A DNA stretch of 64,000 bases from Octopus sinensis (taxonomy: Eukaryota): the NCBI RefSeq assembly GCF_006345805.1, contig NC_043003.1:32922001-32986000 (forward strand). The letters are read 5' to 3'. Each line of letters opens with the position of its first letter. Positions within the stretch are counted from its first letter, which is position 1. The notes under the pieces are model-generated. The model was not told where the DNA came from, made no database searches, and saw nothing but the letters and a program-made list of their open reading frames with translations. Positions 13,445 to 43,325 of the stretch are shown here, in pieces. A program made the position numbers and the translations under genes.

Positions 13445-13870
13445 TAGGGCGGTAGAGAGAATCGTTACAACGTCAGAAAAAAGACCTCGTAATATTTCTT
13501 CTTGTTCTTTACGTTCTGATTTCTAATCACTCCGAGGTCAGCTTTGCTTTTCATCCTTCCTGGTGCCAGTCGAGTACTAAGGTCGACTCACCACCTCCTT
13601 CAAATTTTACGGCTTGAGCCTATATTAAAAATAATTACGTGCCGAGATTAAGGTAAAAATTAATAATGCCCAGGATAATCACAAGCTGCAAATTTGTTTA
13701 GAAAAGGATCAGGCAGTTATACTGATAACTCTATTTGACTGCTAATGAATTTTACCGATTCTGAAGGGAAGCGAAACAAAGAGGGTCTCGGCGGTATTTT
13801 ACTTTTGAACCAGAACAAATGCTGCAAAGTAGTTAGTTTGTTATTCTAACGATTCTGCCAATCAACCGCC
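13445..13870. mobile_element. Two old SINE family B copies in inverted (tail-to-tail) orientation
   Basis: Plus copy GGCGGTAGAGAGAATCGTTA...GAGGTCAGCTTTGCTTTTCATCCTT. Minus copy ends TAACGATTCTGCCAATCAACCGCC. Confidence 0.6.
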
Positions 13871-23915: not shown

Positions 23916-24365
23916 GAGAACAAAGTGAAAAATGGGAGAAGAACGCAAAACATCCGCACAACTAGGTGATACAAAAAGGGACTACAAAACATCCAGATAG
24001 ACGATACAAAAAACAAGGAGGGGTCATTCGAAGCTTTATATCCTCATTCAAGAACCAGATCATCCTCGCAATTTCGGTTGATTAATCTTGACATATATAT
24101 ATGTGTGTGTGTATGTATGTATGTATGTATGTATGTATGTATGTATGTATGTATGTATGTATGTATGTGTATATATATTAGAAGTACTAAAGTTGTCGAG
24201 AACTCAACTGCCAGTTAAACATATCTGAAATCTGACGATTATTCTATGTATGAAAGCGCTAATTTAAATTTATGAGCATTACAAAATATATGTTTTAATG
24301 TTAAAATACAATAATAAAAAATGTGAAAACCAGACCGTTTAAACTTTATTCTATTCAAATGATAG

Positions 24366-24404
<39 letters not shown>

Positions 24405-24445
24405 CATATAAAATTAATTAATTAAGAATTAATAAGCTTAAGTAG

Positions 24446-24709
24446 TACTTTATAATTAGGGTTCAGCAAAGATTTGCTTCACCACATACCGAAGTTTAGA
24501 AATAGCAGTCAAAAGACCTTAGCTATTTCTTCTACTTTAAAAGGGACTCCCAGAAAAACCTAAGTACTTGAAAACAATCTACGCAGGCAAAGAGAAAAAA
24601 TAACGAAAATCAATCCATATTTGAAGAAATAGCTAAGGTTTTTTGACTGCTATTTCTAAACTTCGGTATGTGGTGAAGCAAATCTTTGCTGAAACCTTAT
24701 TATAAAGTA
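24446..24709. repeat. 87-bp near-perfect inverted repeat with ~90-bp spacer
   Basis: 24446-24532 TACTTTATAATTAGGGTTCAGCAAAGATTTGCTTCACCACATACCGAAG...GCTATTTCTTC is the reverse complement of 24623-24709 with a few mismatches. Confidence 0.9.
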
Positions 24710-25733
24710 TATATATATATATACATACATACATACACATACATATTTGAATATATATGCAACTCTACGGTAACAGTGGGAGTGAGATAGTAGATCTGAA
24801 AAATAAAAAGCAGTACATTGCAGCAAAGACATGGTTTCAAGAGTTGGTGTTGATCACAAAACAGTCTATAATGTCATGAAACGCTACAGTGAGACAGGTT
24901 CAGTCGACAGCAAGCCCATTCCTGGTCGAAAATAATCCGTAAGGAAGCAATTGGTGGATGTTGCCCGAAAGAGAGTGTTGCGAAATGCACAGCGGAGCAC
25001 GAGGCAAATGGCTAAATGACTCGATATTTCCAAGACAACAATGTGACAGGTCGTGCACGTAGATTTAAATTGTAAGTCCTTAAAATTGCAACTTCGACAC
25101 CCGATTTCAGCCGCTGCCAAAGCAATTCGACTGGACACGTGCAAGAAAATGGCAGATGCGATTCAAAGCACCGGTGACAATGTCATCATCTAGTCGGACA
25201 AACAGATATTCACTGTGAAGGCTGTGGAGAACACTCAAAATGACAGGATTTTGGCAACGAGGTCGGTTGTTGTTGCCGAAGGCGCTCGTCAGGTGCTTTG
25301 CCGAATGAAACCCGCCAGAATAATGATTTGAACGGTAGTGTCATCCGATGGTGGAAAATTTTTTCTGATCTTTATTAAAGAGGGGACGAAGATAAATTTA
25401 CATGAAAATGTTGGAGGATAACTGAAGCGCTTGGAAATAATTACGTGTTCACGCAAGATGGCACTTCTTCTCATACGTCCAATGCACCACAATAGAAGCT
25501 ATTTCAGCGGATTTTGGGACAAGAATGTGTGGTCCTTCTTCAACCCAGACATCAAACCTATGGACTTCGATATTTGGCCCATGAGAATTTCCTACAAAAA
25601 TAACCCCAAGATTCCGAGTTCGATTCCAAGCAGTGACCTGAACAATAATAATAATGATAATAATAATAATAATAATAATAATAACATCTAAGAATACCTT
25701 AGAAATGAGAACCTAGGTTCGAAATTTCCCCAA

Positions 25734-25779
25734 GATACCTGGAGAAGGCTGGAAGGTATATCAGCCGAAACGTTGTGTT
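25734..25779 (+). ncRNA. Minimal type-I hammerhead ribozyme motif (core mutated in this copy)
   Basis: GATAC-CTGGAGA-A-GGCTG-GAAGGTATAT-CAGCC-GAAACGTT-GTGTT. The paralog at 38295 has canonical CTGATGA. Stem I GA(C/T)AC:GTGTT, stem II GGCTG:CAGCC, palindromic AACGTT as stem III. Confidence 0.7.
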
Positions 25780-25805
25780 AACAACAAACAAGATGAGGAC
25801 AAATA

Positions 25806-26034
25806 ATTCTTTATTAACCACAAGGGACTAAACATAGAGTGGACAAACAAGGACAGACAAACGGATTAAATCAATTATATCGACCCCAGTGCGTAACTGG
25901 TACTTAATTTATCGACCCCGAAAGGATGAAAAGCAAAGTCGACCTCGGCGGAATTTGAAATCAGAACGTAGCGGCAGACGAAATACCGCTAGGCATTTCG
26001 CCCGGCGTGCTAACGATTCTGCCAGCTCGCCGCC
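25806..26034 (-). mobile_element. tRNA-derived SINE family B (MetaSINE-like core), full length with 16-bp TSD
   Basis: Head GGCGGCGAGCTGGCAGAATCGTTAG, core GAGGTCGACTTTGCTTTTCATCCTTTCGGGGTCGATAAATTAAGTACCAG. TSD AAGATGAGGACAAATA (25790-25805) / AAGATGAAGACAAATA (26035-26050). The Meta-domain label is from memory. Confidence 0.9.
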
Positions 26035-26106
26035 AAGATGAAGACAAATATCCGTCGAATGTAAATAATGTAAAAATATCACCGTTCTGAAGAGAGTTGC
26101 ATCATA

Positions 26107-26524
26107 GGCGCAGGAGTGACTATGTGGTAAGTAGCTTGTTTACCAACCACATGGTTCCGGGTTCAGTCCCACTGCGTGGCACCTTGCGCAAGTGTCTTCT
26201 ACTATAGCCTCGGGCCGACCAAAGCCTTGTGAGTGGATTTGGTAGACGGAAACTGAAAGAAGCCCGTCGTATATATGTATATATATATATATATATATAT
26301 GTGTGCGTGTATGTTTGTGTGTCTGTGTTTGTCCCCCTACCATTGCTTAACAACCGATGCTGGTGTGTTTACGTCCCCGTCACTTAGCGGTTCGGCAAAA
26401 GAGACCGATAGAATAAGTACTGAGCTTACAAAGAATAAGTCCCGGGGTCGATTTGCTCGATTAAAGGCGCTGCTCCAGCATGGCCGCAGTCAAATGACTG
26501 AAACAAGTAAAAGAGTAAAGAGTA
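26107..26524 (+). mobile_element. SINE family A, full length
   Basis: High identity to the reverse complement of 21660-22063. Confidence 0.9.
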
Positions 26525-26873
26525 TAGGATCATTTAAGTCGTCCGGCGTGCGTGTGATTCTGTACTCGGCTGTCTACGTGCGACTGCGAAGGCGAAAGGC
26601 GGACATATTGAATGAAACGTATCTTGATATGTTACATGACCTTATATCCTATTTCCTTATATCCTAAAGAACTCGTGTTTTTATGCCGTTTGCTAAAAAT
26701 TATGGCTAAAAATCTACCGGGAATTCTTTACGGCGCTCTGTGTATTGTCCTACATGTGTAGAACAGTGAACTGGAAAACGTCGATTATCTTAAATTATCA
26801 ATGTAGCTAGTAATCAAAACTTCCCCGATAGGTATTTAAAACATGAACACAATCACCACGTATAATTCTAATA

Positions 26874-27223
26874 CTGTGAAGGCGCATGGCTCAGTGGTTA
26901 GAGCGTCGAGCTTACGATCGTGAGGTTGTGAGTTAGAATCCCGGACCGGGCTGCGTGTTGTGCTCCTGAGCAAGACACTTTATTTCACATTGCTCCAGTT
27001 CACTCAGCTGTAGAAATGAGTTGCGACGTCACAGGTGCCAAGCTGTATCGGCCTTTACCTTTCCTTTGGATAACACTGGTGGCGTGGAGAGGGGAGGCTG
27101 GTATGCATGGGTGACTGCTGGCCTTCCATAAACAATCTTGCTCGGACTTGTGCCTGGAGAGTGGGGGGGTAACCTTCTAGGTTGCAATCCCATGGTTTGT
27201 GTCGTGACCGAAAGGGGGTCTCA
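26874..27223 (+). mobile_element. tRNA-derived SINE family C (CORE-like central domain) with 12-bp TSD
   Basis: A box TGGCTCAGTGG, B-box-like GAGTTAGAATCC, core CTGAGCAAGACACTTTATTTCACATTGCTCCAGTTCACTCAGCTGTAGAAATGAG. TSD ATAATTCTAATA at 26862 and 27224. Confidence 0.85.
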
Positions 27224-27316
27224 ATAATTCTAATAAAATCCACTAACCGAAAAATTTTGGATAACACAGACAACGCAGAATAATGTGGAGTTTAGGTATT
27301 ACACCCACTGATGGAA

Positions 27317-27359
27317 GTAGCACACCTATTTCAGCCTTATTAGCTCTCCTCAGTGATAC
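27317..27359 (-). ncRNA. Decayed hammerhead-like motif
   Basis: GTATCA-CTGAGGA-GAGCTAATAAGGCT-GAAATAGGT-G-TGCTAC. Core and stems I/II are recognisable, but the cleavage position is G and stem III is broken. Confidence 0.35.
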
Positions 27360-30300
27360 ATATTCTTTTTTGTTGACAAAAATGAACAGTGTACAGTTAA
27401 AAAAATATAGACCAGTGACTTTGATTCTGTTTTATTTTCATCCTTATACGTTCTTCGATAGTCTTTCAGCCTTTGATTTCTGTTTTTGTATTTGTGGAAG
27501 CATCCTGATATCCTGTGTGTTTGTATGAATTACTGTACTGATTGGTTACTTGTCTTACTACAGTAAGCAGTAGTTTTCATATTGCTGATGATTGTTATGA
27601 TCAAGTTGATAGGGTTAGACAAAATGGCCATATTGATAGTATGGTAGTTGTCGGTGTTGTTATTTACAACTAACTTACTTCTAAGCATAGAAGCCTATAC
27701 TCATAAGCGTTCCACCCTTGACATCCTATCGTTCAAGAAGCATAAACGCATTTCTGACTTCTATATTGAAAACACTGTGACCTTATACTTTTAAAGATGG
27801 CAGGGTATGATTCATTTGATGGTAATTTGTATGCTATTTCTCATCATCATCATCCTCATCATCATCGTCGTTGTCTTCGTTGTCATCATCATCATCATCA
27901 TCATCATCACCGTCATCATCATGATGTTTGACCTTAACCGCCGACGTCAATCTGAAAACTAATGCTTCCAGTAAAATAAGAACTCAAAACGTTCTCAGGA
28001 AATGATGCTATCACAAATGCACGGGGACACAGACACAAGCACGCAAACAGAACAAGTGGTCGAGGGACAAAGAATCAATGTTTCGTAGAACCGAGAAAGT
28101 AAACATAATCAGCATCACTGTATTCCTTCTATTTCCTATTGATCGCTTTTAACAGCAGGTCAGGCGATCACGCAGCAGCAGCAGCAGCAGTAGCAGCAGC
28201 TCCACTCCACTCGTTGGTGCGTTTGATGTTCATGTTCAGTGGAGTGTGTGACATTGCAGTTGGTATCAATGTCGATGGATTTCTTGGTGATCAGTGGTGT
28301 TGGAGGATAGCGATAAGTGGATGTTGCTATTGTTGCTGTTGTTGTTGTTGTTGTTGCTGTAGTACTTGTTGTTGTTGCTGTTTGTTGCTGGCTATAGGTC
28401 ATCCTTAATAAAAGAAACAAAAAATAACCAACGGTGTCCCAGTCATAGTCATTTAATTATTTTCTTTCAGGCATAAGGGTACCTTCGACTACGTCATCCG
28501 ATATGTACAGTTTTAAAATGGTTGGATATTATTATTTAGCTGCTATTTCTCGCAAGTCAACAGATCAGTGAAGGCTTACGGCCCATTCCCTCTTTTAGTG
28601 TATCTTTGGCGAACATATCATTATGTTTTCAGGAGAGCTGTAAGTCGGTCGAAGGTGATGTTGCTGCTATTTCTATAAGGTCAAGCGAATACAATGGTTA
28701 AAACTGCCCGAAATCTTTTCGTATTTTAAGAAAGAGGGACATAGTTTAGGGAGATTTAACTACTATTTCTATAAGGTTGAAGAATTACAATGGCTAAAAT
28801 AATATATGAGGTTTTGTTAAAAAAAAAAAGCAGGGATTTAATCTGAGGGAGATTTGGCTGTCAATTTTAGAAAGTTGGGATTTCCTCGATGGTTCGTTGC
28901 GGAAATGGTTTTATTTGTGTCTGTTTTTATCGTTGTTGTTGTTGGGGTAATAAAGAGCGACGTCAAATAAGTAGAGTTGTGAGTTCAAATCCAGCCAGCA
29001 CGAATTTTATCTTTCATTCTTTCGCGGTTGATAAAATAAGATACCAATAAAGTACAAGGTCGAAGTGTCAACGAACTCAATCACGAATTTATTAGCCTTA
29101 TTATGCCAGACGGAGAAACAGTTATTAGTGCTGTATTCATAGAAGTTAATCGTCGTAGTTATAGTAAAGAGAAATAGCGTTGGTGGCAATGTCTTGCTAT
29201 TGCTATTAGTGGTGTTGTTAGGTTTGGTGATGATATTGTTGGTGGTTTTCATGTATTGGTGTAGACAGTGCCGGTGGTACTGAAGATGGTGTTCAACAGA
29301 GATTCTAATAAAGAAGACGATGGGGGAAAGATACAAATCGGAACAGAACGATACGGAAATTAATGCACAAAACTCGTCCTCATTGAGCAGTAGAGGCCAC
29401 ACTTTTTATAACACAAGGTAATGGAAGTTTTCTATTGATGCTCCTGTTGTTGTTGTTGTTGCTGCTGCTGCTGTTGTTGTTTTGTTGTCGTTGTTGTTGT
29501 TGTTTTCATCATTGCTACAATTGATGTTGTTACTGTTGGTTGGTGTTTCTTTGACTACTCAAGCAAAGAATAGTCGTAATGAGGAAGAGCTGGAAGAAAA
29601 CCACCCCAGCATTGCAAGCGGCTTATTTGATGGAATTATTTGACGGAATCTGTCAAGAGGAAGTTTGAATGGCTTAGAATCTGTTAGTTCTTTAGGTAGC
29701 TTCAGGGAAAAGAGATAATGTTAAAATAGTGCTTCTCCAATCGAAGTGAATAAACATTGTGATAAATAATATTTATGTGTTAAGAGGTAGATTTCTTTAA
29801 ATGTTTGCTAAGGATAGATGCTACAGGCTCTAACTTTGATGAAATCTGAAGAAGACATGGTAGATAGGCATCGTTTGGATAAAGTTTGGGATAAATCATT
29901 TGGATAATGTTTCTTTGTTTGCTTGTGTATTTATTTGCTTTCTTTCTCTTATAGCTACTTTCTCTTACACATGCGCTGTACGTTGAATAATGCTTTAACT
30001 TTGACCGTTGATTTTTATCGTGATCGAGTTCTGCCTTAACTTTAATTCTTATTATTCTGTTGTGGTGCATAATAACTAGAGAGGCGGGGAAATAAGGGAT
30101 CGCTAAAACATACAAAAGAAACAAATAAATAAATATATAAACAAAATAAACGGTTAAGATTTAGCAATGACAAGACTGTCCTATTGTTCAAGAGTCACGC
30201 GCGTTCTATTTGCGTTAAATTAGCATAACAACATCTGAGTAAGAAGAATTTCCTGCGTAGAGTTGCGAGGGAAAGAACAGAAGTTTTTAGACAAAATACA

Positions 30301-30409
30301 CACACACACACACGTGTGAGGTCTACTTTATAATTTTTATGAGTAGAAATTTTGACTTCAAATCTTAACACAAAACCAGAAATTTCAATTCGAAAATTTA
30401 TAATATCGA

Positions 30410-30560
30410 ACCCAGAGTTCAGCTGATACTTATTTTATAGACCCCGAAAGGATGAATGGCAAAATTAACGTTGGTGGTATTTGAACTCAGCACATGCAGA
30501 CGGATGAAATGCCGCAAAGTATTTTCGCCGGCGTGCTTAACGCTTCTGCCAGCTCACCGA
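30410..30560 (-). mobile_element. SINE family B copy
   Basis: GACCCCGAAAGGATGAATGGCAAA...TTGAACTCAG...TTCTGCCAGCTCACCG. Confidence 0.8.
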
Positions 30561-30593
30561 CATATGTAAATAGAAATATTTCCTTCAAACATA

Positions 30594-31885
30594 CGAGGGG
30601 CGTTCAATAAGTAATGCTCCTGACCCACTTCCCATAGCAGTAGAGCAACGAAACTTGGCACAGTTATTAGTCTTTTTCTACATAGGAATCACTCAGAGTT
30701 ACGCATTTGTCCCATCGTTTGAGGCAGCGCTGGAAGCCGTTTTTGTAGAAGACCCCAGCTTGGTCCTCCAACCGCGACGTGACTTTAGAAATCAAGGCTG
30801 CATCATCTGTGAAATGCTTTCCTTTCAAAAACAACTTCATGGCTGGGAAAAGGTGAAAATCAGAGGGTGCAAGGTCAGGATCGTAGGGGGGATGGGGGAG
30901 GAGTTCATAGCAGCACGCCTGTGTTTCTGATCTGGCGACAAGCGAGATGTGGACCAGAGCGTTGTCCTGCAGGAGGAGGATGCCTTTGCTGATCTTGCCC
31001 CACCTCTTGATTTTGATAGCTTCTCTTAATTTCCTCAAAAGTGAAGCATAATAGGCTCCTGTAATTGTGGTACCCTTTGCCAGGAAATCTGTCATCACTA
31101 CTTCGTCCTGGTCCCAGAAGACTGTGAGCATGACCTTGCCAGCGGAGGGCTGCACCCTTGCCTTCTTTGGAGGAGGTGAGTCACGGTGCTTCCACTGCAT
31201 TGACTGGGCTTTGGTCTCTGAATCATAGTGATGGACCCAGGTTTCATCCTGTGTAATCAGTCTTTTGAAAAATTTTGACTCATCTTCTTGGCACATCTCC
31301 AAATTCATCCTCGAGCACTGGACGCGTTCTTGCTTCTGGAAAGGCGTGAGCAACCTGGGAATCCATCTGGCAGACACCTTTTGCATATGCAAATGGTCAT
31401 GAATGATAGTTTCCACAGACCCGGTACTAATCTTGACCTCATGGGCTATTTGGCGAATAGTTATGCGTCGATCTTCCAAAATGGCAGCCTCAACTTGACG
31501 GACAGGTGTCTCATCAATGGCAGAAGGGGGGTGACCAGATCTGGGAGCTGTTTCCACAGAGTTCCGACCATGTTTGAATTCACGATGCCAGCGTTTTACA
31601 AGGTCATATGATGGGCATCATCACCATAAGTTACTTTCATTTCATCAAAAGTCTCCTGTGGTGTGCGTCCTTTCAAATACAAAAACCGGATCACTGCTCG
31701 ACATTCAACAGGTTCCATTTCACACTTGACTCAGTTCAAACACCTGTAAATCAGAAACCACAATTAGCTTAGAGCTGTAATTTGCCACTTAATCCATAGA
31801 GATAGAAATAATTGCACTTGCTAAATTTCAGCTAGATCAAACAAATGCAAGTGGGTCAGAGACATTACTTATTGAACGTCTCTCG
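30594..31885 (-). mobile_element. Full-length mariner transposon (DD34D, irritans-like), ~1.29 kb
   Basis: TA flanks; TIRs CGAGGGGCGTTCAATAAGTAATGCTCCTGACCCACTT / AAGTGGGTCAGAGACATTACTTATTGAACGTCTCTCG. Confidence 0.95.
30667..31718 (-). pseudogene. Mariner transposase, ~350 aa when a single frameshift near 31613 is repaired
   Basis: Starts MEPVECRAVIRFLYLKG. WIPRLL linker, TQDETW, LQDNA, and YDPDLAPSD with 34 residues between the 2nd and 3rd Asp. The 1052-nt span is 1 nt short of a whole number of codons. Confidence 0.92.
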
Positions 31886-31909
31886 TATCAATATACTAAT
31901 GTAACTAAC

Positions 31910-31984
31910 GGGGATGTAGCTAACGGGGATGTAGAGCGTTAGCTTTGATCTGAAATGCCACGGGTTCGATTCCCAGCATCTCCA
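31910..31984 (+). pseudogene. tRNA-Ala-derived pseudogene or SINE head
   Basis: Acceptor stem GGGGATG/CATCTCC-A with G3:U70 (Ala identity element), T arm GGGTTCGATTCCC. D arm replaced by a CTAACGGGGATGTAG duplication; anticodon arm decayed. Confidence 0.7.
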
Positions 31985-32069
31985 CACAGCATGTTTCTTT
32001 GGGTATTCTTTTTAAATGGCGGTGCCACAGTATAGTCACAGCCTTTAGTTTGAAACATATAAAGGATAT

Positions 32070-32255
32070 ACATGATAGATCGTTAGCCACTACACACATT
32101 TTTTTCTCTCCTTGTTTTTTCTGTGTCCCTTTCTGTAGGAGAGCGTAGGCTCGAAACGTAAAAGACTTTTTCTATTCCTAAGCGTTATACTAATACATCT
32201 GTTTGTTTTGTACACCACCTGTCTTCGTCTTTTGTTTTTTTCGTAAACTCTCCCT
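32070..32255 (+). mobile_element. Short Penelope-pLTR-like repeat with a variant hammerhead motif (32129-32164)
   Basis: CTTT-CTGTAGGA-GAGC-GTAG-GCTC-GAAACGT-A-AAAG. Homologous inverted copy at 60880-61070. Confidence 0.55.
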
Positions 32256-32402
32256 ATATATATATATATATATATGAAAACCCCACTAGAATGGGAGAAA
32301 GCGCTAATAATCTGAATGATATGATATATATATGTAAAAAATGTAATATATAAATAAATATCTATAAATATGAATCATCCGATCTTCTGATTACCTCATT
32401 TC

Positions 32403-32436
<34 letters not shown>

Positions 32437-32437
<1 letters not shown>

Positions 32438-32808
32438 CGTGGCACTCCGTCGGTTAGGACGACGGGGGTTCCAGTTGATCCGACCAATGGAACAGCCTGC
32501 TCGTGAAATATACTGAGCACTCCACAGACACGTCTACCCTTAACGTAGTTCTTGGGGAGATTCAGCGTGACACAGTGTATGACAAGGTTGGCCCTTTGAA
32601 ATACAAGTACAACAGAAAAAGGAGGAAAGAGTGAGGGAAAGTAGTAGTAAAAGAGTACAGCAGGATTCACCACCACCCTCTGCCGGAGTTCGTGGAGCTT
32701 TAGGTGTTTTCGCTCAATAAACACTCACAACACTAGGTGTAGGAATCGAAACCGCGATCCTACGACCACGAATCCGCTGCCTTAACCGCTGGGCCACTGC
32801 GCCTCCAC
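32437..32808 (-). mobile_element. tRNA-derived SINE family D, full length
   Basis: Head GGAGGCGCAGTGGCCCAGCGGTTAAGGC...GGTTTCGATTCC; tail GGAACCCCCGTCGTCCTAACCGACGGAGTGCC. Confidence 0.85.
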
Positions 32809-32869
32809 TGTGTATGTGCACACACACACACACACATACAGACACACACACAGACACACACACACACGC

Positions 32870-32917
<48 letters not shown>

Positions 32918-32919
32918 CA

Positions 32920-33130
32920 TCCGGCAACCCTGCTGTACTCTTTCACCACAACTTTCACTCTTTCTTCTTGTTTCTGTTGTACCTGTATTTCAAAGGGCTA
33001 CCTTTGACACACTCTGAATCTTCCCCAGAACTACGTTTAGGGTACACGAATCTGTGGAGTGCTCAGTCACCTGCACATTAATTTAACGAGCAACTGGAAC
33101 CCTCGTCGCCGCAACCGACGGAGTACCACG
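32920..33130 (+). mobile_element. SINE family D, 5'-truncated copy inverted relative to 32437-32808
   Basis: CCTGCTGTACTCTTT...CTACGTTTAGGGTACACG...GGAACCCTCGTCGCCGCAACCGACGGAGTACC. Confidence 0.8.
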
Positions 33131-33461
33131 TATATATATAAGCGAACTTGATTACAAGGGCCAATTTTTTCTTTCGTGCCATATCAGTTAAATCTATAAA
33201 GAGGATTTCTGAACTTTAATAAACTGCTCCACTTTTACTGTGTAAACTTAACGTAAATTTAGCCTGCGATATTTTACTAGTTTATCCTCTATCTTCTAAT
33301 TGATTCAGTCATCGGACTGTGGCCATGCTGGGGCACCGACCTGTAGGGGTTTTAGCCGAATAAATGGGCCCCAAGAAATTTTCTTTATTCATTCTTTATC
33401 AGTATGTTATCTCGGTTGTGTGAGCTACTTCCTTGGAATCTAACTATCGGATGAATCTACT

Positions 33462-35013
33462 AACAGGCCCCGTGTGAGGACGGTGTCCCAGCTGAGATCT
33501 ACAAGGCCGAGCCTGATGTATTCGCAGCCTGGTTCCATCGTGTTTTCTGTGCTGTGTGGGCAATGGAGCGTTTTCCTGATGACTGGAGCGAGGCAACTCT
33601 TTTACCTTTCTTCAAAAAAGGTGATAGAAAGCTGTGGTCCAACTACAGGGGCATCAACTTGATCGATGTGGCTGCCAAAATCTTTGCAATCCTTCTTCTG
33701 AAGAGGTTCCAGGCCATCCGTGATGTCCGTACTCGTCCTTCTCAGGGCGGCTTCCGTCCCGGGAGAGGGTGCCTTGATCAAATCTTCATTCTCCGGCGAG
33801 TCCTGGAACAGCGGTGGGCGCACCAACAAACTACCGTTCTCTGCTTCATCGATTTTGCGGCTGCCTTCGACTCGGTGGATCGGGAGTCCTTCTGGCGTAT
33901 TATGCAGGCAGACGGTATCACTGTGAAGCTGCTAAACCTCATACAGGGCTACTATCGTTCAACGAGGGATCGTGTGAGGGTCTATGGCGTGGAGACGGAG
34001 TTGTTTGATGTCACTACCGGTGTTCGACAGGGTTGTGCGCTCTCGCCAACCCTATTCAATTACGCCATCGATTACATTCTCAACACTGCGCTTCGGGACT
34101 ACCCGGGCGTAGAGACTGGAAGAGGAGTGGTAGTGACGGACCTGGCCTACGCAGATGACATCGCGCTCTTGGGCTGTAACCGGGCAGATGTCCAAGATGC
34201 TCTCGAAAGGGTATATGCGGCAGCGACAGCTGTTGGTCTTCGGATCAAAACCAAAGTGATGGCGTCTCTGGTGCAGCATATGACTGGCAGCCAATCGTTC
34301 TCGAGGGCGTGGAGCTGGAGGATGTGGAGTCCTTCGTCTACCTGGGTTCAACTGGCCAGCGCGCAGCCGAGGTCGAGCGTCGCATAGGTGCTGCCAGATC
34401 CACATTCGTGCGCTTCCAGTGGTGCCTGTGGGACAGAAGAGAGATCTTCTCGGTGACCTAAGGGCGAATCTACCAGGCCGTTGTTCCTACTATCCACCTC
34501 TATGGTTGGGAAACATGGCCTATGAGGGTAGTCGATCAGCAAAGGCTGGAGGTTTTCGACAATGACTGTCTCCGCCGCATTCTTCGCTGCCGACGCATTG
34601 ATCGGGTTCCTACAGCCAGTCTTCGTCATCGCCTGAATCTCCGGCCCCTCCCTTCGATGCTTCTACAACGGCGTTTAAGATGGTTCGGTCATGCAGCCCG
34701 GCGACCAGAGGGTGAGCTGATTCGCGATGTCCTCCTCCCACCTCCACTTCCCAACTGACGCAAACGCATGGGTGGGCAGCTGAAGACCTGGTCAACGATG
34801 ATAAAGGAGGACCTCTCCGAACTCTCAGGTTCGCCGGTGGTCGGTCTGCGCAGATGGAACCGCGAATGGCTCGCTATTTCCAGTGACCTCACACAGGGCC
34901 GTCAAGCGTGGACCGCCATGGTTCGTGATGCCGTCAGGACCAGAGAAGAAGCCGGCTCAACCCGCCCTGGGTGAATGCCGTCACAAGTACAAGTACACAA
35001 GTAGAAGTACAAG
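33462..35013 (+). mobile_element. RTE-clade LINE, 5'-truncated, RT domain through 3' end
   Basis: APCEDGVPAEIYK, NYRGINL, QGGFRPGRG, FIDFAAAFDSV, GVRQGCALSPTLF, LAYADD, RRLRWFGH, ...AGSTRPG*. (CAAGTA)-type tail; a few stops and frameshifts; visibly GC-richer than the flanks. Confidence 0.95.
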
Positions 35014-35268
35014 CAGGAACTTATAGATTTGGAAGCACAAGGTTGTTTAGTGATATATCTATTGACAGTTATTCACAGATCTCTTTATTCAATGGTAAGT
35101 GTATTTTCATAGCTGCAGAGATAAATTCATACTCACCAGCTGCCACCATAGAGAGAAGAGGAGAGGTGTAGAGAGAATCATATCTGCAGTGATACTCTGT
35201 CTTTATGGTAGACAGCAGCTACCTCTATAATTCTATAGACTGATAGAGGGTGTGTGAGAGAGATAGAC

Positions 35269-35353
<85 letters not shown>

Positions 35354-35793
35354 TAGATACATAGAGAGTCAGAGAAAGGAAGAGCGGGAGAGAAGCATAA
35401 TTAGAGGTTAAGATTTAATCTATGACTAATTGTGATGCTGGTGATCTTGTGCTACAAGAAGCAGTGGTTTTCAAATCAGTGTTTTGTATCTTGAGCGATT
35501 GTCTTTTAATCTGTGAATTAAATTGGTGAGACTGAATCTGTGGAAGTTAATCAGGTGAAATGGCTTCCACAATTTCTCCAGAGGATCGGTCTTGTGATAA
35601 ACTCTGTCACATTGATTCTGCATAAAAATTATGTTCATAGTGAGAGTGTTTGTGGGAGCAATAAGCAAACAAGTATACGATAATTCAATGAATTGACTGA
35701 TTAGTTAATCGAATACCTGAAATACTCCAGTCATCGTCGATACTGATGTAGATCCACCTTTCAATATTTATTTGTTTTCTGTTATGCAGTATA

Positions 35794-35847
35794 TGTCTTG
35801 GGGAAATTTCGAACCTGGGTTCTCATTCCTAAGGTATTTTTCGATGC

Positions 35848-35905
<58 letters not shown>

Positions 35906-38026
35906 TAGTTTTATTTTTATAGTGTGCTTTCACTTCACTACCGAGCGCAGCTCTGTGTGCCTTGGGTATGTGCTGTGATTTGTTGTGATGCTTTGATGGT
36001 TATTGTATGGAAAGGATTCTGCGTAGGATGTGTGCAGTGCCTAGTAGTGCAATTTTCTGTATGTTATATGTGTTTGTAAGTCCTGGTGTTTTTGTTATGT
36101 ATTTGTCTGAATATTTTTTTATCATGCCTAATGCATCTACTATGATAGGAATTGTTTCTGTTTTCAGATTCCACATTCTAGTTACCTCTATTTCCAGGTC
36201 TTTGTATTTTGAGAGTTTCTCCATTTCTTTTAGAGACACGTTGTCATCTGCCGGTATTGATACATCAATTAGAAAGCATTTTTTTCTTCATGATCTCTGA
36301 CAACTATATCTGGTCTGTTGGCCTTAATTTCTCTATCTGTGTGTATCGGCATATCCCAGAGTATGGTTGCTTTCTCGTTTTCTGTGACCTTTTCTGGTGT
36401 GTGCCTATACCATCTTTTTTCTGTTGTTATTCCATAATGTTGGCATAGCTTCCAATGTATGTAGGTTCCAACTCTGTCATGTCTGTGAATATATTCCTTC
36501 TTAGCCAGGACTGGGCAGCTAGAGATAATATGATTTATTGTTTCTTGTCCATCTCCACATATTCTGCAGTTACTTGTAATATTTCTTTTCATTACATGTT
36601 TTTGGTAATTTCTGGTGGGGAGGCTTCGGTCTTGTGCTGCAATTAAAAATCCCTCTGTTTCTGCTTTGAGTCCTGAGCTTCTCAACCATTGCTGGGATTT
36701 TTCTTTGTCTATTTCTTTTGCGTTTAGTTTAGTCCAGTATTTACCATGAAGGGGCTTTTCTTGCCATCGTTTTATCATGGTTCGTTGCTGTTCTACTTTT
36801 AGTTTGGATTTCATTTGTTTTATAGCTTTTGTTGTTTCTTCATCTTCTTCTTCTTCTTCATGTTTATTAGGTGGTATGATTTCTTGTTTGTATTTGTCAG
36901 CTTCCTTAAATACTGAGAAGAGTTTTTTGTTTTGCTCGTGTTTTGCCGCTATCTGGATCAGTTTTCCTTCCTTCTGAAGTAGATATTTTTGCAGTCCTAT
37001 GGTGGTTATTTTATAGTAGTTTCCCAGCTGTATAAGGCCTCTACCACCTTCTATACGTTGTATATATAGTCTTTCTATGTCAGATTTTGGGTGATGCATC
37101 CTAGATACTGTCATTATTTTTCTTGTTTTCCTATCTATTTTGGTCAGTTCATTTCGTGTCCAGTTAAGGATATTGTAGCTGTAACTTATAACTGGGACAG
37201 CTAAAGTGTTGATACCTATTATCTTGTTTTTAGCATTGAGCTCTGTTTTTAGTATTGATCTAACTCGTCTATAATATTCTTTTTTTTATTTTCTCTTTCA
37301 TTTGTGTGTGTTGTGTCTTATCTAATTCATGGATTCCTAAGTATTTGTAAGTTTGACTTTAGTCTAATTCTTTTATTTCATTGGTTTTATCTAGTGTGAT
37401 GTTGTTACTCTTAACTAGTTTTCCTCTTTTCATGGTTACTTTGGCGCGTTTTTCTAATCCAAATTTCATATCTATTTCTTTGGTAAATCCATGAACTGTC
37501 TTTAATAGTGTTTCCAGCTGTTTGTCATTTGCAGCGTATAGTTTTAGGTCATCCATATATAAAAGGTGGCTGATCGTTTTGCCGTAACATTTATATCCGC
37601 ATCCAGTTCTATTTAGTATATCAGATAGAGGTGACAGTGCCAAGCAGAATAGAAGTGGAGAGAGCATGTCTCCCTAGAATATTCCTCTTCTAATGGGGAT
37701 GTCTTTGGTTTTCATGAGTCCCTCTTTTGTTTGGAGGTGTAGGACTGTTTGCCATTTATTCATAGAGTGCTCTATGAATTTTATGATTGTTGGTGCTACT
37801 TTGTTAATGGCTAGTGTTTCGAGGATCCATGTGTGGGGGATGCTATCAAACGCCTTTTTGTAGTCAATCCAGGCCATACTGAGGCCTTTCTTCTTTCCGT
37901 GGCTGTCTTCAGTTATGGCTTTATTAATCATTAGTTGATCTTTACAGCCATATGAGCCTTTGCGGCATCCTTTCTGCTCTTCTGGGAACAGTTTGTTTTC
38001 GCCCAGGTGCTTGTTCAGCCTTTGCG

Positions 38027-38092
<66 letters not shown>

Positions 38093-38148
38093 TCCATTGC
38101 TTGGGATCGAACTCGAAATCTTGGGGTTAGTAGCACGCACTCTTAACC
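35794..38148 (-). mobile_element. Family H (tRNA-head/(AAT)n) copy split by the Dong insertion
   Basis: Head at 38148-38090 (GGTTAAGAGTGCGTGCTACTAACCCCAAGATTTCGAGTTCGATCCC), (AAT)n 38089-38027, Dong, (AAT)n 35902-35848, body CATCGAAAAATACCTTAGGAATGAGAACCCAGGTTCGAAATTTCCCCAAGACA to 35794. Confidence 0.85.
35903..38026 (-). mobile_element. Dong/R4-clade non-LTR retrotransposon (RT + restriction-like endonuclease), 5'-truncated, inserted in (TAA)n
   Basis: EQKGCR, WIDYKKAFDS, LSPLLFCL, YMDDLKL, YKYLG, CCHC finger CRICGDGQETINHIISSC, RHD, NRPDIV, IDVSIP..KEMEKLSKY. (TAA)n on both sides; at least two stops and two frameshifts. Confidence 0.95.
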
Positions 38149-38174
38149 CCAAGATTTCGAGTTCGATTCCAAGC

Positions 38175-38237
<63 letters not shown>

Positions 38238-38397
38238 TATAATATCATCGAAAAATACCTTAGGAATGAGAACCCAGGTTCGAAATTTCCCCAAGACACC
38301 TGATGAAGGCTAGAGGGGTATATCAGTCAAGATGAGGACGAATATCCGTCAGATGTAGATAATGTAGCTAATTCCTCATCTCTTAAATATAGAACTG
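38144..38397 (+). mobile_element. Family H copy, head-to-head with 35794-38148; hammerhead partly deleted
   Basis: Has GACAC-CTGATGA-AGGCT (38295-38311) but lacks the ~23 nt CGAAACGTTGTGTTAACAACAAA present in the 25.7-kb copy. Confidence 0.85.
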
Positions 38398-38974
38398 AGT
38401 TACGCAGTATGTTTTTGTGCGGGTCTTTGATGATGCATGCTAAACCACCAATTCTGCGATCACATGTCCTGGAAACAAATCTTTGGTCCTGACTTGCAAC
38501 TCAAATGAATACTGAAGAGCCCGGCTTGTGTTCTGTGAATTAGATCACATTCTAATGTCTGACCTGTTGTAATTTTTATTTAGCCCCAGGTCAGTCCTGC
38601 TTAAGAAGACTTACAATGAAATTTAATGTAGCCATGGTCATTAGCATGTTCTGTACTGCACTGGTCAGTGTGTTCTGCCTCTTTCAAAATACAGTAGAGT
38701 GTGATTTACATTAAATTTAACTACTATTACTACTAAGTCGAACAACTATACAGACGATCCTTCGTTGATTTTCTGAAAATTAAGTTGTATTATTTTTATT
38801 TTTCGTGGCTTCGTGAGAGGAGTAAAAAAAAATGCCCATTTCCTTTTTGTAACTCTCCAAATTTGGTGTGGGTAAAAGAAAGAGTTATCTTAAAGCTGGA
38901 GACGTGACATAAATGCATCCAGCCGAATGAACTCTCCTTAAAAAGCCTAAAAGAAATTATGGAAAACACGTAAT

Positions 38975-39182
38975 GGTTTCAAATCTTGGCACAGGGCCAG
39001 CAGGATTTTAGGGGAGGGGGAAGTGAATTACACCTACCCCAGCACTTGACTGGTATTTATTTTATCGATCCCTAAAGGATGAAAGGAAAAGTCAACCGCG
39101 GCTGTATTTGAAATCAGAATTTAAAGTCGGAACAAATGCTGATATGCATTTTGTCTGGTGCGGTAACGAATCTGCCATCTCG
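38975..39182 (-). mobile_element. SINE family B-related copy
   Basis: CTGGTATTTATTTTATCGATCCCTAAAGGATGAAAGG...TCTGCCATCTCGC. Confidence 0.75.
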
Positions 39183-39603
39183 CTGTCCAGATTTAGTAAC
39201 CTTTAGGAGGGACAAACAAGAGCGTCTAATAATTGACGTGTCAGAGCCAGAAGATCAACATATCATCATGAAAGAAAGAGAAAAGAAAGATAAATATAGA
39301 AACCTGAGAATTGAGATCGCTAAGATGTGGCAGCTACGAGATTCAAACATAAAGGTTATCCCTATTGTCATCGGAGTATTGGGTTTCATACCAACTAATC
39401 TAAAAAAAGCATCCGAAAACCTTAGAAATACCCTACAATCTAGACGTATTGCAAAAATCGGCATTACTTGGAACTGCACGCATATTGCGTAAAGTACTGT
39501 CTGTCTGAGGTCCTTGTTGTGACTTCACAAAGAGTACAACCTCCCGGTAGACATAATATCTTCAGTCATCAACCTCACGATATACTCTGCGACCTCTATG
39601 ATG

Positions 39604-39680: not shown

Positions 39681-39878
39681 TTCTAATATATGCAAAAACC
39701 CTGAAATTTGTTGGGTAGGGGAGAGTCGATTACAAGGACTCCAGTGCTGAACTGGTACTTAAATTATTGACTCTGAAAGACAAAGTCGACTTCGATGGAA
39801 TTTGAACTCAGAGCGTAAAGGCAGACGAAACGTCGCTAAATCTTCTCTCCGACGCGCTCACGATTCTGCTAGCTCGAC
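39680..39878 (-). mobile_element. SINE family B-related copy
   Basis: AAAGTCGACTTCGATGGAATTTGAACTCAGAGCGTAAAG...ACGATTCTGCTAGCTCG. Confidence 0.75.
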
Positions 39879-41488: not shown

Positions 41489-41660
41489 AAAGGCGGGGAG
41501 TGGTAGAATCGTTAGCACCCCGGGCAAAATGTTTAGCGGCATTTCGTCCGTTTTTACGATCAAATTCTTATGAAGTTGAATTTGACCTTCATGCTTCCGA
41601 GGTCGATAAAAAAAGTACCAGTTAATTGACTTAACCATTTTCCGATATTGCTTTGAATTC
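41489..41660 (+). mobile_element. SINE family B-related copy
   Basis: AAGGCGGGGAGTGGTAGAATCGTTAGCA...TTCCGAGGTCGATAAAAAAAGTACCAG. Confidence 0.75.
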
Positions 41661-42848: not shown

Positions 42849-43325
42849 TAGTGGTTCTAAACCGGGGTCTACATGACACTTGGGGTTCCATGTAACATTT
42901 CGTTGTTAAAATTTATGTACAACAACTTGGTTTTAGTCTACAATGCACAAAATATTAAAAAAAATTTTTAATGAAATTCTTTTTAATATTTACTATTATA
43001 TTTAAGGCGATGAGCTGGCAGAATCGATAGTATGTCGGGCGAAATGCTTATCAGCATTTCGTCCGTCTTCACGTTTTGAGTTCAAATTACATCAAGGTCA
43101 ACGTTACCTTGCATCTATTCGGTGTCGATAAAATAAGTACCAGTTGAGTACTGGGGTCGATGCAGTCGACTTACTCCATTCCCGAAATTGCTGGTCTTCT
43201 ACCAAAATTTGAAATCAATATTTAATATTAAATGCATAACAACATTTTTTAATGGCAAAGGGGGCCAGAAGTGTAAAATAAGAATCATAGTGATCCACAG
43301 ACAAAAACCTGCTTGAGAACCATTG
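42849..43325. mobile_element. hAT (Charlie-like) MITE with a nested SINE B (43005-43220)
   Basis: TIRs TAGTGGTTCTAAA / TTGAGAACCATTG; 8-bp TSD ATCAACAG / ATCTACAG. Confidence 0.75.

Follow-up and report, generated by a model that had tools for sequence, protein, structure and literature searches.

The stretch analysed here (the window) comprises 64,000 nucleotides of the Octopus sinensis genome (NCBI RefSeq assembly GCF_006345805.1, contig NC_043003.1, positions 32,922,001 to 32,986,000) and carries short repeats in which a tRNA-like head, an (AAT)n tract and a hammerhead ribozyme motif follow one another. A first-pass annotation had viewed them as a chimeric, non-autonomous short interspersed nuclear element (SINE) borrowing the machinery of a Penelope-like element (PLE). 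This view did not survive a search of the 2.72-Gb genome, where the repeats proved, almost certainly, to be solo pseudo-long terminal repeats (pLTRs) of an autonomous PLE of about 2.9 kb, in which two pLTRs enclose an open reading frame (ORF). On balance we favour the view that these are solo pLTRs of a protein-coding element of the Penelope/Poseidon type whose tRNA-derived 5' end is a likely internal RNA polymerase III (Pol III) promoter for the element RNA.

The first genome search returned 30 loci, at least six of them with coding sequence directly upstream of the head. At 30 loci chosen by the end of a GIY-YIG coding sequence, a stop codon and about 33 nt are followed by the head in 28 cases, with continuation into the body in 26, and upstream of the GIY-YIG end the frame carries on into a reverse transcriptase (RT). 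Among 30 loci chosen by the N-terminal part of the ORF, three of which represent the same insertion found on three contigs and two the paired arms of a single insertion, 29 have the 3' end of the unit directly upstream and in the same orientation. The resulting layout is head-(AAT)n-ATG-hammerhead-tail-ORF-33 nt-head-(AAT)n-hammerhead-tail, with a majority sequence of 2935 nt composed of a 277-nt pLTR, an internal part of 2381 nt (depth of at least 24) and a second 277-nt pLTR. The two pLTRs flank the ORF as direct repeats, and two copies span both of them at 90-91% identity, L193 covering majority positions 88-2913 and L163 positions 218-2935. An autonomous PLE with RT and GIY-YIG that shares the repeat, which the first-pass annotation had suggested looking for, is thus present in the genome, with the whole unit and not the 3' part alone belonging to it; the claim that the copies are made by Penelope-type enzymes also holds.

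The majority sequence contains a single frame of 835 amino acids (aa), with its ATG at unit position +122 and reading through the hammerhead and the tail. An RVT_1 domain was found in two of four single-copy frames (E 3e-10 in L184) and the C-terminal part matches a relative bearing the Pfam GIY-YIG domain (43% identity, E 2e-14), while Pfam searches with the GIY-YIG fragment and with the 551-aa frame of L183 gave no significant family. An 847-aa relative from another source, 57% identical, retains the peptide encoded by the hammerhead, which is kept in two of 24 long relatives, both from one cluster. The domain order, a layout like that of the anole element PAc and motifs typical of the group suggest assignment to the Penelope/Poseidon type. 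No intact ORF exists among the single copies examined (longest frame 551 aa), and with a non-CpG decay of about 6% the family is probably extinct or nearly so. The element stretch is also present in sequencing runs of five organisms, and the ORF start in contigs of three of these. The octopus genome holds a second, younger-looking PLE family (L443-L462) whose open frames reach about 640 aa and whose 3' end is T-rich; from its motifs we take it to be Neptune-like.

The closest parallel is PAc itself (Poseidon_Ac of Anolis carolinensis), for which the accessible parts of PMC11167929 describe the same pLTR-ORF-pLTR arrangement, an RT followed by a C-terminal GIY-YIG domain, an ORF that starts in the pLTR at the hammerhead and encloses its cut site, 3' ends that fall into two classes 30-40 nt apart (the tail) and inverted 5' partial copies. 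In PAc the tail lies between two internal RT start sites (same source). The 3' ends of the octopus copies cluster at +240-250 and at +270-295, as with an optional tail of 30-40 nt, and an inverted piece lies upstream in 47 of 90 arms; PLE insertions with such inverted pieces and tails are on record in the parts of PMC8557442 at hand. The octopus element differs from PAc in the tRNA-derived head and (AAT)n leader at the start of its pLTR and in the dominance of solo pLTRs, whereas the available text of PMC11167929 describes no tRNA-like segment or Pol III promoter.

A clue to the promoter comes from where the copies end on their 5' side. Exact 20-mer counts are 708 for the GIY-YIG end, 858 for the 3' untranslated region, 4938 for the head, 7366 for the body and 11524 for the 3' part, meaning that they rise 1.2-fold over 102 nt and then 5.8-fold over a stretch of 58 nt that contains tRNA position +1; with exact-match rates of 0.31-0.36, they correspond to about 24,000-32,000 arms. 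Among head-bearing copies (the first 90 of the 4938 head matches by position, four of which are one duplicated locus), the 5' limit lies at -22..+20 in 68, and the remaining 22 extend into the ORF end. When copies were instead taken by their 3' part (the first 90 of 11524 matches, including a few unmerged pairs of arms of one insertion), 27 ended in the body, 22 at the AAT tract, several of these being split by a long interspersed nuclear element (LINE), and 41 reached the head. Six of these 41 end at +15..+36, 26 at -16..+9 and nine go on, so that 26 of the 35 copies at risk stop in the interval around tRNA position 1. Per nucleotide, the hazard of ending is 0.054 at the head start, compared with 0.004 and 0.003 in the stretches flanking it; for this interval, which was chosen after looking, the excess has a P of about 2e-19. 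Of the 5' pLTRs joined to an ORF, six distinct ones extend into the head, with starts at +1, +1, +1, +4, +30 and +32 and no upstream tandem continuation, and a depth step is found at the same head position in DNA contigs of another organism (organism B). The simplest reading of the pile-up at tRNA position 1 is that the element RNA starts at the head, and we regard such a transcription start as very probable. Two further observations concern single copies: in L392 an ORF-end piece is joined to the tail without a head, and the four copies L148, L149, L203 and L204, all within 1 Mb of contig C1, are identical to one another, flanks included, and represent a segmental duplication or an assembly repeat.

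The head itself, with an A box at +8 and a B box at +53, is judged to be tRNA-derived from two kinds of comparison, in agreement with what the first-pass annotation had read from it. A covariance model trained on 14 of the genome's tRNA sequences matches it in register from G+1 (best score 30.3 bits; most of 59 loci match, with E up to 5), and pairwise alignment to 10 tRNAs gives z values of 4.1-7.5, with 84 other windows of the element scoring at most 19 versus 56 for the head. ARAGORN reported no tRNA at the window arms or in any of 13 head-bearing loci, and no single one of the 10 tRNAs tested was singled out as the source isotype. Near 80 related metagenome PLE loci, many of them on contigs too short to include the element ends, only two weak tRNA-head matches were seen, ~2-3 kb from the matched ORF stretch, and six scanned loci of the second octopus PLE family gave no tRNA-like match. 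Elsewhere, ARAGORN placed a tRNA-Gln(TTG) at 31910-31985 (+) of the window, which looks degenerate relative to the genome's tRNAs and may be a pseudogene or a SINE head, and locus L279 holds seven tRNA-Cys-type genes within 3 kb, four of them at about 156-bp spacing and one with anticodon ACA.

A promoter of this kind raises the question of which RNA it serves. We find it reasonably probable that Pol III is used for at least the pLTR RNA; its use for the full coding RNA is a tentative proposition, to which we give somewhat less than even weight. The latter is suggested by the lack of sense runs of four or more T (T4 runs) in the 2935-nt majority sequence, which has 31 corresponding A runs. Base shuffling would predict 5.3 T4 runs (P 0.007) and synonymous shuffling of the coding part 2.6 (P 0.04). 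T4 runs are present in all 41 related PLE stretches compared (at least 1 kb each, from the 80 metagenome loci; median 4.3 per kb), and the second PLE family of the genome, which is richer in T, contains 16 within 1.9 kb. This absence is suggestive but not decisive.

Several points weigh against end-to-end transcription by Pol III. The absence of T4 runs is unremarkable under Markov nulls preserving dinucleotide or trinucleotide composition (P 0.10 and 0.29); an A-rich LINE of the same genome has just one in 1.66 kb; and the 41 controls are decayed single copies while the zero refers to a majority sequence, single copies of the element carrying about one run per kb. Only six ORF-bearing 5' pLTRs stand behind the starts at or inside the head, and a short inverted repeat crosses +1, about seven of the 26 ends there being local fold-backs. 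Other SINE heads of the genome match the element head as well as tRNAs do, so that the head is as likely to have been captured from a SINE as from a tRNA gene. In RNA reads of a related organism neither starts nor ends pile up, both strands are equally represented and run-on into the flanks amounts to 78-87%, but these data count as uninformative because standard RNA sequencing cannot show short or uncapped RNA; no RNA run figures among the listed sequencing runs that contain the element stretch. Furthermore, translation of an uncapped 2.9-kb RNA has no explanation, and Kojima holds, in the available part of PMC10886601, that the weak processivity of Pol III rules this mode of transcription out for autonomous LTR (long terminal repeat) elements, and expects autonomous partners to need RNA polymerase II (Pol II).

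In the main competing explanation the anatomy is the same but the coding RNA is made by Pol II, either by read-through or, as for Drosophila Penelope, from a promoter inside the pLTR. The head would then be that of a captured SINE and drive nothing but short pLTR RNAs, or would coincide with a Pol II start. This explanation would solve the translation problem, it agrees with described PLE promoters, which lie in the pLTR and are tied to spliced, Pol II-type transcripts (PMC8557442, in its accessible parts), and it draws further on the weakness of the T-run evidence under Markov nulls and on the likeness of the head to other SINE heads (up to 49 of 75 positions identical). Nevertheless, the ORF-bearing copies also start at or inside the head (6/6), and the whole ORF, not the pLTR alone, is free of T4 runs, unlike all 41 related stretches; for these reasons we consider the Pol II explanation unlikely, although far from negligible.

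A second alternative is the original proposal, namely that an independent tRNA-headed SINE lineage took up the 3' end of a PLE and amplifies from source copies of its own. The short copies do look like SINEs in two ways, having a Pol III-type head and lacking the ORF; most copies are SINE-sized and start at the tRNA head, 37 of 89 keep both box patterns, which would make secondary amplification possible, and Sm-alpha provides a precedent for a tRNA-related hammerhead SINE. However, the head, the AAT tract and the body all belong to the autonomous element, and the same majority sequence and variants recur in 65 short and 52 long copies, which show no fixed difference and have non-CpG divergences of 6.2% and 6.4%, respectively. 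The single common non-CpG head variant occurs in both groups alike, and the smallest P values between them, 0.016-0.04 among 34 columns, fall mostly on CpG sites biased by copy selection. The lack of fixed differences and the equal divergence indicate that the short copies are products of the autonomous element and not a separate lineage, an idea that is thereby largely refuted and that we now hold to be very improbable. Slightly less probable still is that the pile-up at +1 reflects RT stalling or cDNA fold-back at the 5-bp inverted repeat that spans this site (some junctions are local fold-backs), or RNase P-type cutting of the tRNA-like fold, rather than a transcription start: the ends are indeed scattered over about 25 nt instead of falling on one base, but about 19 of 26 are not local fold-backs, none of the six ORF-bearing 5' pLTRs passes the +1 site, and RNase P is made less plausible by the poor pairing of the acceptor and T stems of the head in the majority sequence.

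Regarding the ribozyme, the complete minimal hammerhead that the first-pass annotation had rebuilt from defective copies exists intact across the genome, with 761 exact matches to the 46-nt motif and none to a reversed-pattern control, and the core is intact in 35 of 87 copies spanning the region. It is, as had been claimed, of the minimal PLE type. The available part of PMC4209133 describes for this type a 5-bp helix I, a 5-6-bp helix II, a palindromic, loopless helix III and a predicted need for dimers, all shared by the octopus motif; nothing essential differs, and the predicted cleavage triplet of the octopus ribozyme ends in U. The predicted cut falls after unit position 191, the equivalent of window position 25774, and any self-cleavage would probably be dimer-dependent. 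Covariation within the family is scarce: across the 10 pairs, about 90 copies contain only two two-sided changes between standard pairs, a number in keeping with a single young family whose copies are dead. Hammerheads of the same layout but with other stems are present in another family of the genome and in metagenome loci (12 matches in 80 loci, none in shuffles); examples of such minimal families, from the genome and from metagenome contigs, are L066 and L432 (one family), L474, L477, L480, L500, L509, L517 and others. Rfam gave no hammerhead or tRNA among 150 of 185 matches listed for the window, which were mostly microsatellite matches to miRNA models, nor among the matches listed for a near-majority copy. 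No read ends were found at the predicted cut site in RNA reads of the related organism, data of a kind that cannot show short or uncapped RNA. A weak excess of copy ends at +190..+195 (6/90) was considered as an in vivo cleavage footprint and dismissed in view of an adjacent palindrome. Copies that extend from +1 through the cut site point to uncleaved templates, as for PAc.

In the mechanism that we propose, transcription would start at the tRNA-derived head, and the element protein would bind its own RNA and begin reverse transcription about 120-155 nt into the ORF, where internal initiation has been reported in vitro for PAc (PMC11167929). Initiation at the junction of the 5' pLTR and the ORF, or on short RNAs of solo copies, would copy only the 250-277 nt up to the RNA 5' end, and the outcome would be tens of thousands of SINE-sized copies, about half of them with a second, inverted arm. 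According to prediction, cleavage by the hammerhead requires a dimer or the assistance of a protein, and the copies that span the motif would have been made from uncleaved RNA. In its fullest form, which we put forward with some doubt and at slightly less than an even chance, a PLE is transcribed end to end by Pol III from a captured tRNA or SINE head, its 2.9 kb having been purged of T-run terminators, its uncapped RNA being translated from the AUG between the (AAT)n leader and the hammerhead, and SINE-like copies of itself being shed along the way.

Within the window, the three copies originally listed are confirmed as arms belonging to a single family and located at 25601-26072 (+), 35794-38148 (-) and 38144-38397 (+), but they derive from two insertions. 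Copies 2 and 3 are joined head-to-head over five shared bases (38144-38148), with a tail on the forward arm only, and are flanked by a 12-nt direct repeat with one mismatch, the left target-site duplication lying at 35781-35792 and the right one at 38399-38410 (both +); 4 of 400 random flank pairs equal this match. The head-to-head join and the flanking duplication identify them as a single insertion. The shared head holds in part: B box, (AAT)n and common body are present in each arm, while the pattern GGTTAAGAG...GCTACTAAC is found in copy 2 only. As had been noted, no copy is intact, since copy 1 has the core CTGGAGA, copy 3 has lost GAAAC through a ~26-nt deletion and copy 2 ends just before the core. 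The A box (+8..+18) is retained by no arm, copies 1 and 3 starting at about unit position +35, and both insertions are probably dead.

Insertion 1 (25601-26072, +) is a solo pLTR covering unit positions +36 to about +244, 5'-truncated, without the tail and split by another SINE. It comprises the 3' half of the head (25601-25640; B box at 25618-25627, A box lost), the (AAT)n-type tract that is the 5' leader of the ORF in the full element (25641-25682), an ATG at 25705-25707 matching the start codon of the 835-aa ORF (unit +122) and a minimal type-I hammerhead remnant at 25734-25779, with the core mutated at 25739-25745 and the predicted cut after 25774, all on the plus strand. The unrelated SINE occupies 25806-26033, presumably on the minus strand as judged from its family, between 17-nt duplications at 25789-25805 and 26034-26050; relatives of it, 74-77% identical, lie at 13458-13558, 30394-30562, 39026-39192, 39726-39876, 41492-41624 and 43006-43180. 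No target duplication was accepted around copy 1, where the best candidate, 9 nt with a mismatch, was rejected.

In insertion 2, the inverted arm (copy 2, 35794-38148, -) covers unit positions +17 to +154, with its head at 38148-38090, its AAT tract at 38089-38027 and 35902-35849 and its body at 35848-35794. It measures 2.35 kb because a 5'-truncated LINE (35903-38026, -) occupies its AAT tract; this ~2.1-kb fragment has RVT_1 and zf-RVT matches, carries RT, zinc finger and restriction-enzyme-like (REL-type) endonuclease motifs and, going by these motifs, is presumably R4/Dong-like. The forward arm (copy 3, 38144-38397, +) covers unit positions of about +35 to +275, with the B box at 38161-38170, the AAT tract at 38175-38237, the core CTGATGA at 38300-38306 and the PLE tail at about 38367-38397. 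The (AAT)n tract of the pLTR appears to be a landing pad more generally, in that at least three different recurring LINE-like 3' ends adjoin it in many copies and separate head from body; tracts split in this way include that of the window (35903-38026, -) and those of L003, L014, L030, L038, L047, L233, L259, L315, L331, L336, L352, L363, L372 and L380. R4/Dong-type elements target TAA repeats. Short internal deletions of 10-60 nt are also frequent in head and body, often between short repeats (L061-L090; window position 38327), and may stem from RT template jumping or from later repair.

Several known systems combine some of these features. Sm-alpha and Sj-alpha of schistosomes likewise place a hammerhead behind a tRNA-related Pol III promoter in a short repeat; according to the available parts of PMC2770079 and PMC6765202, they are non-coding and often tandem, with cleavage shown, whereas the octopus unit is the end-repeat of a protein-coding element and is found solo or head-to-head. 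Non-LTR retrozymes (bioRxiv 10.64898/2026.07.22.740005, as far as its accessible text goes) also depend on PLE enzymes and have short, pLTR-related units with a hammerhead, but their definition requires two or more hammerheads in head-to-tail tandem, and no tRNA head is described for them. The octopus loci examined are solo or head-to-head, with no tandem array among them, although no dedicated search for such arrays was made. The TRIMp3 elements Cassandra, Helenus and Ajax (PMC10886601, same restriction) also carry a small-RNA-derived Pol III promoter in a terminal repeat that is regenerated in each cycle, but are non-autonomous LTR elements of less than 1 kb, in contrast to a 2.9-kb autonomous PLE. 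In the portions available, two cephalopod genome papers report Penelope-like elements, SINEs and hammerhead counts without a tRNA-headed pLTR architecture, and titles, abstract openings and passages from the literature describe no tRNA-headed pLTR or Pol III-driven PLE; Repbase, Dfam, SINEBase and the repeat library and supplements of PMC13282606 may already include the family. Hammerheads in pLTRs, inverted insertions, PLE-derived retrozymes and the tRNA-hammerhead SINEs of schistosomes are already known. The unusual part of the octopus element is that its pLTR begins with a tRNA-derived segment, probably a promoter of the Pol III type.

In the textbook view, autonomous retrotransposons use Pol II, or are co-transcribed by host Pol I, and only non-coding SINEs use Pol III. 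If true, a PLE RNA made from a tRNA-derived A/B-box promoter would break this split and raise the question of cap-independent translation, and it would show the birth of Sm-alpha-type ribozyme SINEs from a PLE. Even without Pol III, the pile-up of 5' ends allows the transcription start of a PLE to be read from genomic DNA and supports in vivo the internal-initiation model developed for PAc. In either case, tens of thousands of apparent tRNA-SINEs in such genomes are almost certainly pLTRs of an autonomous element.

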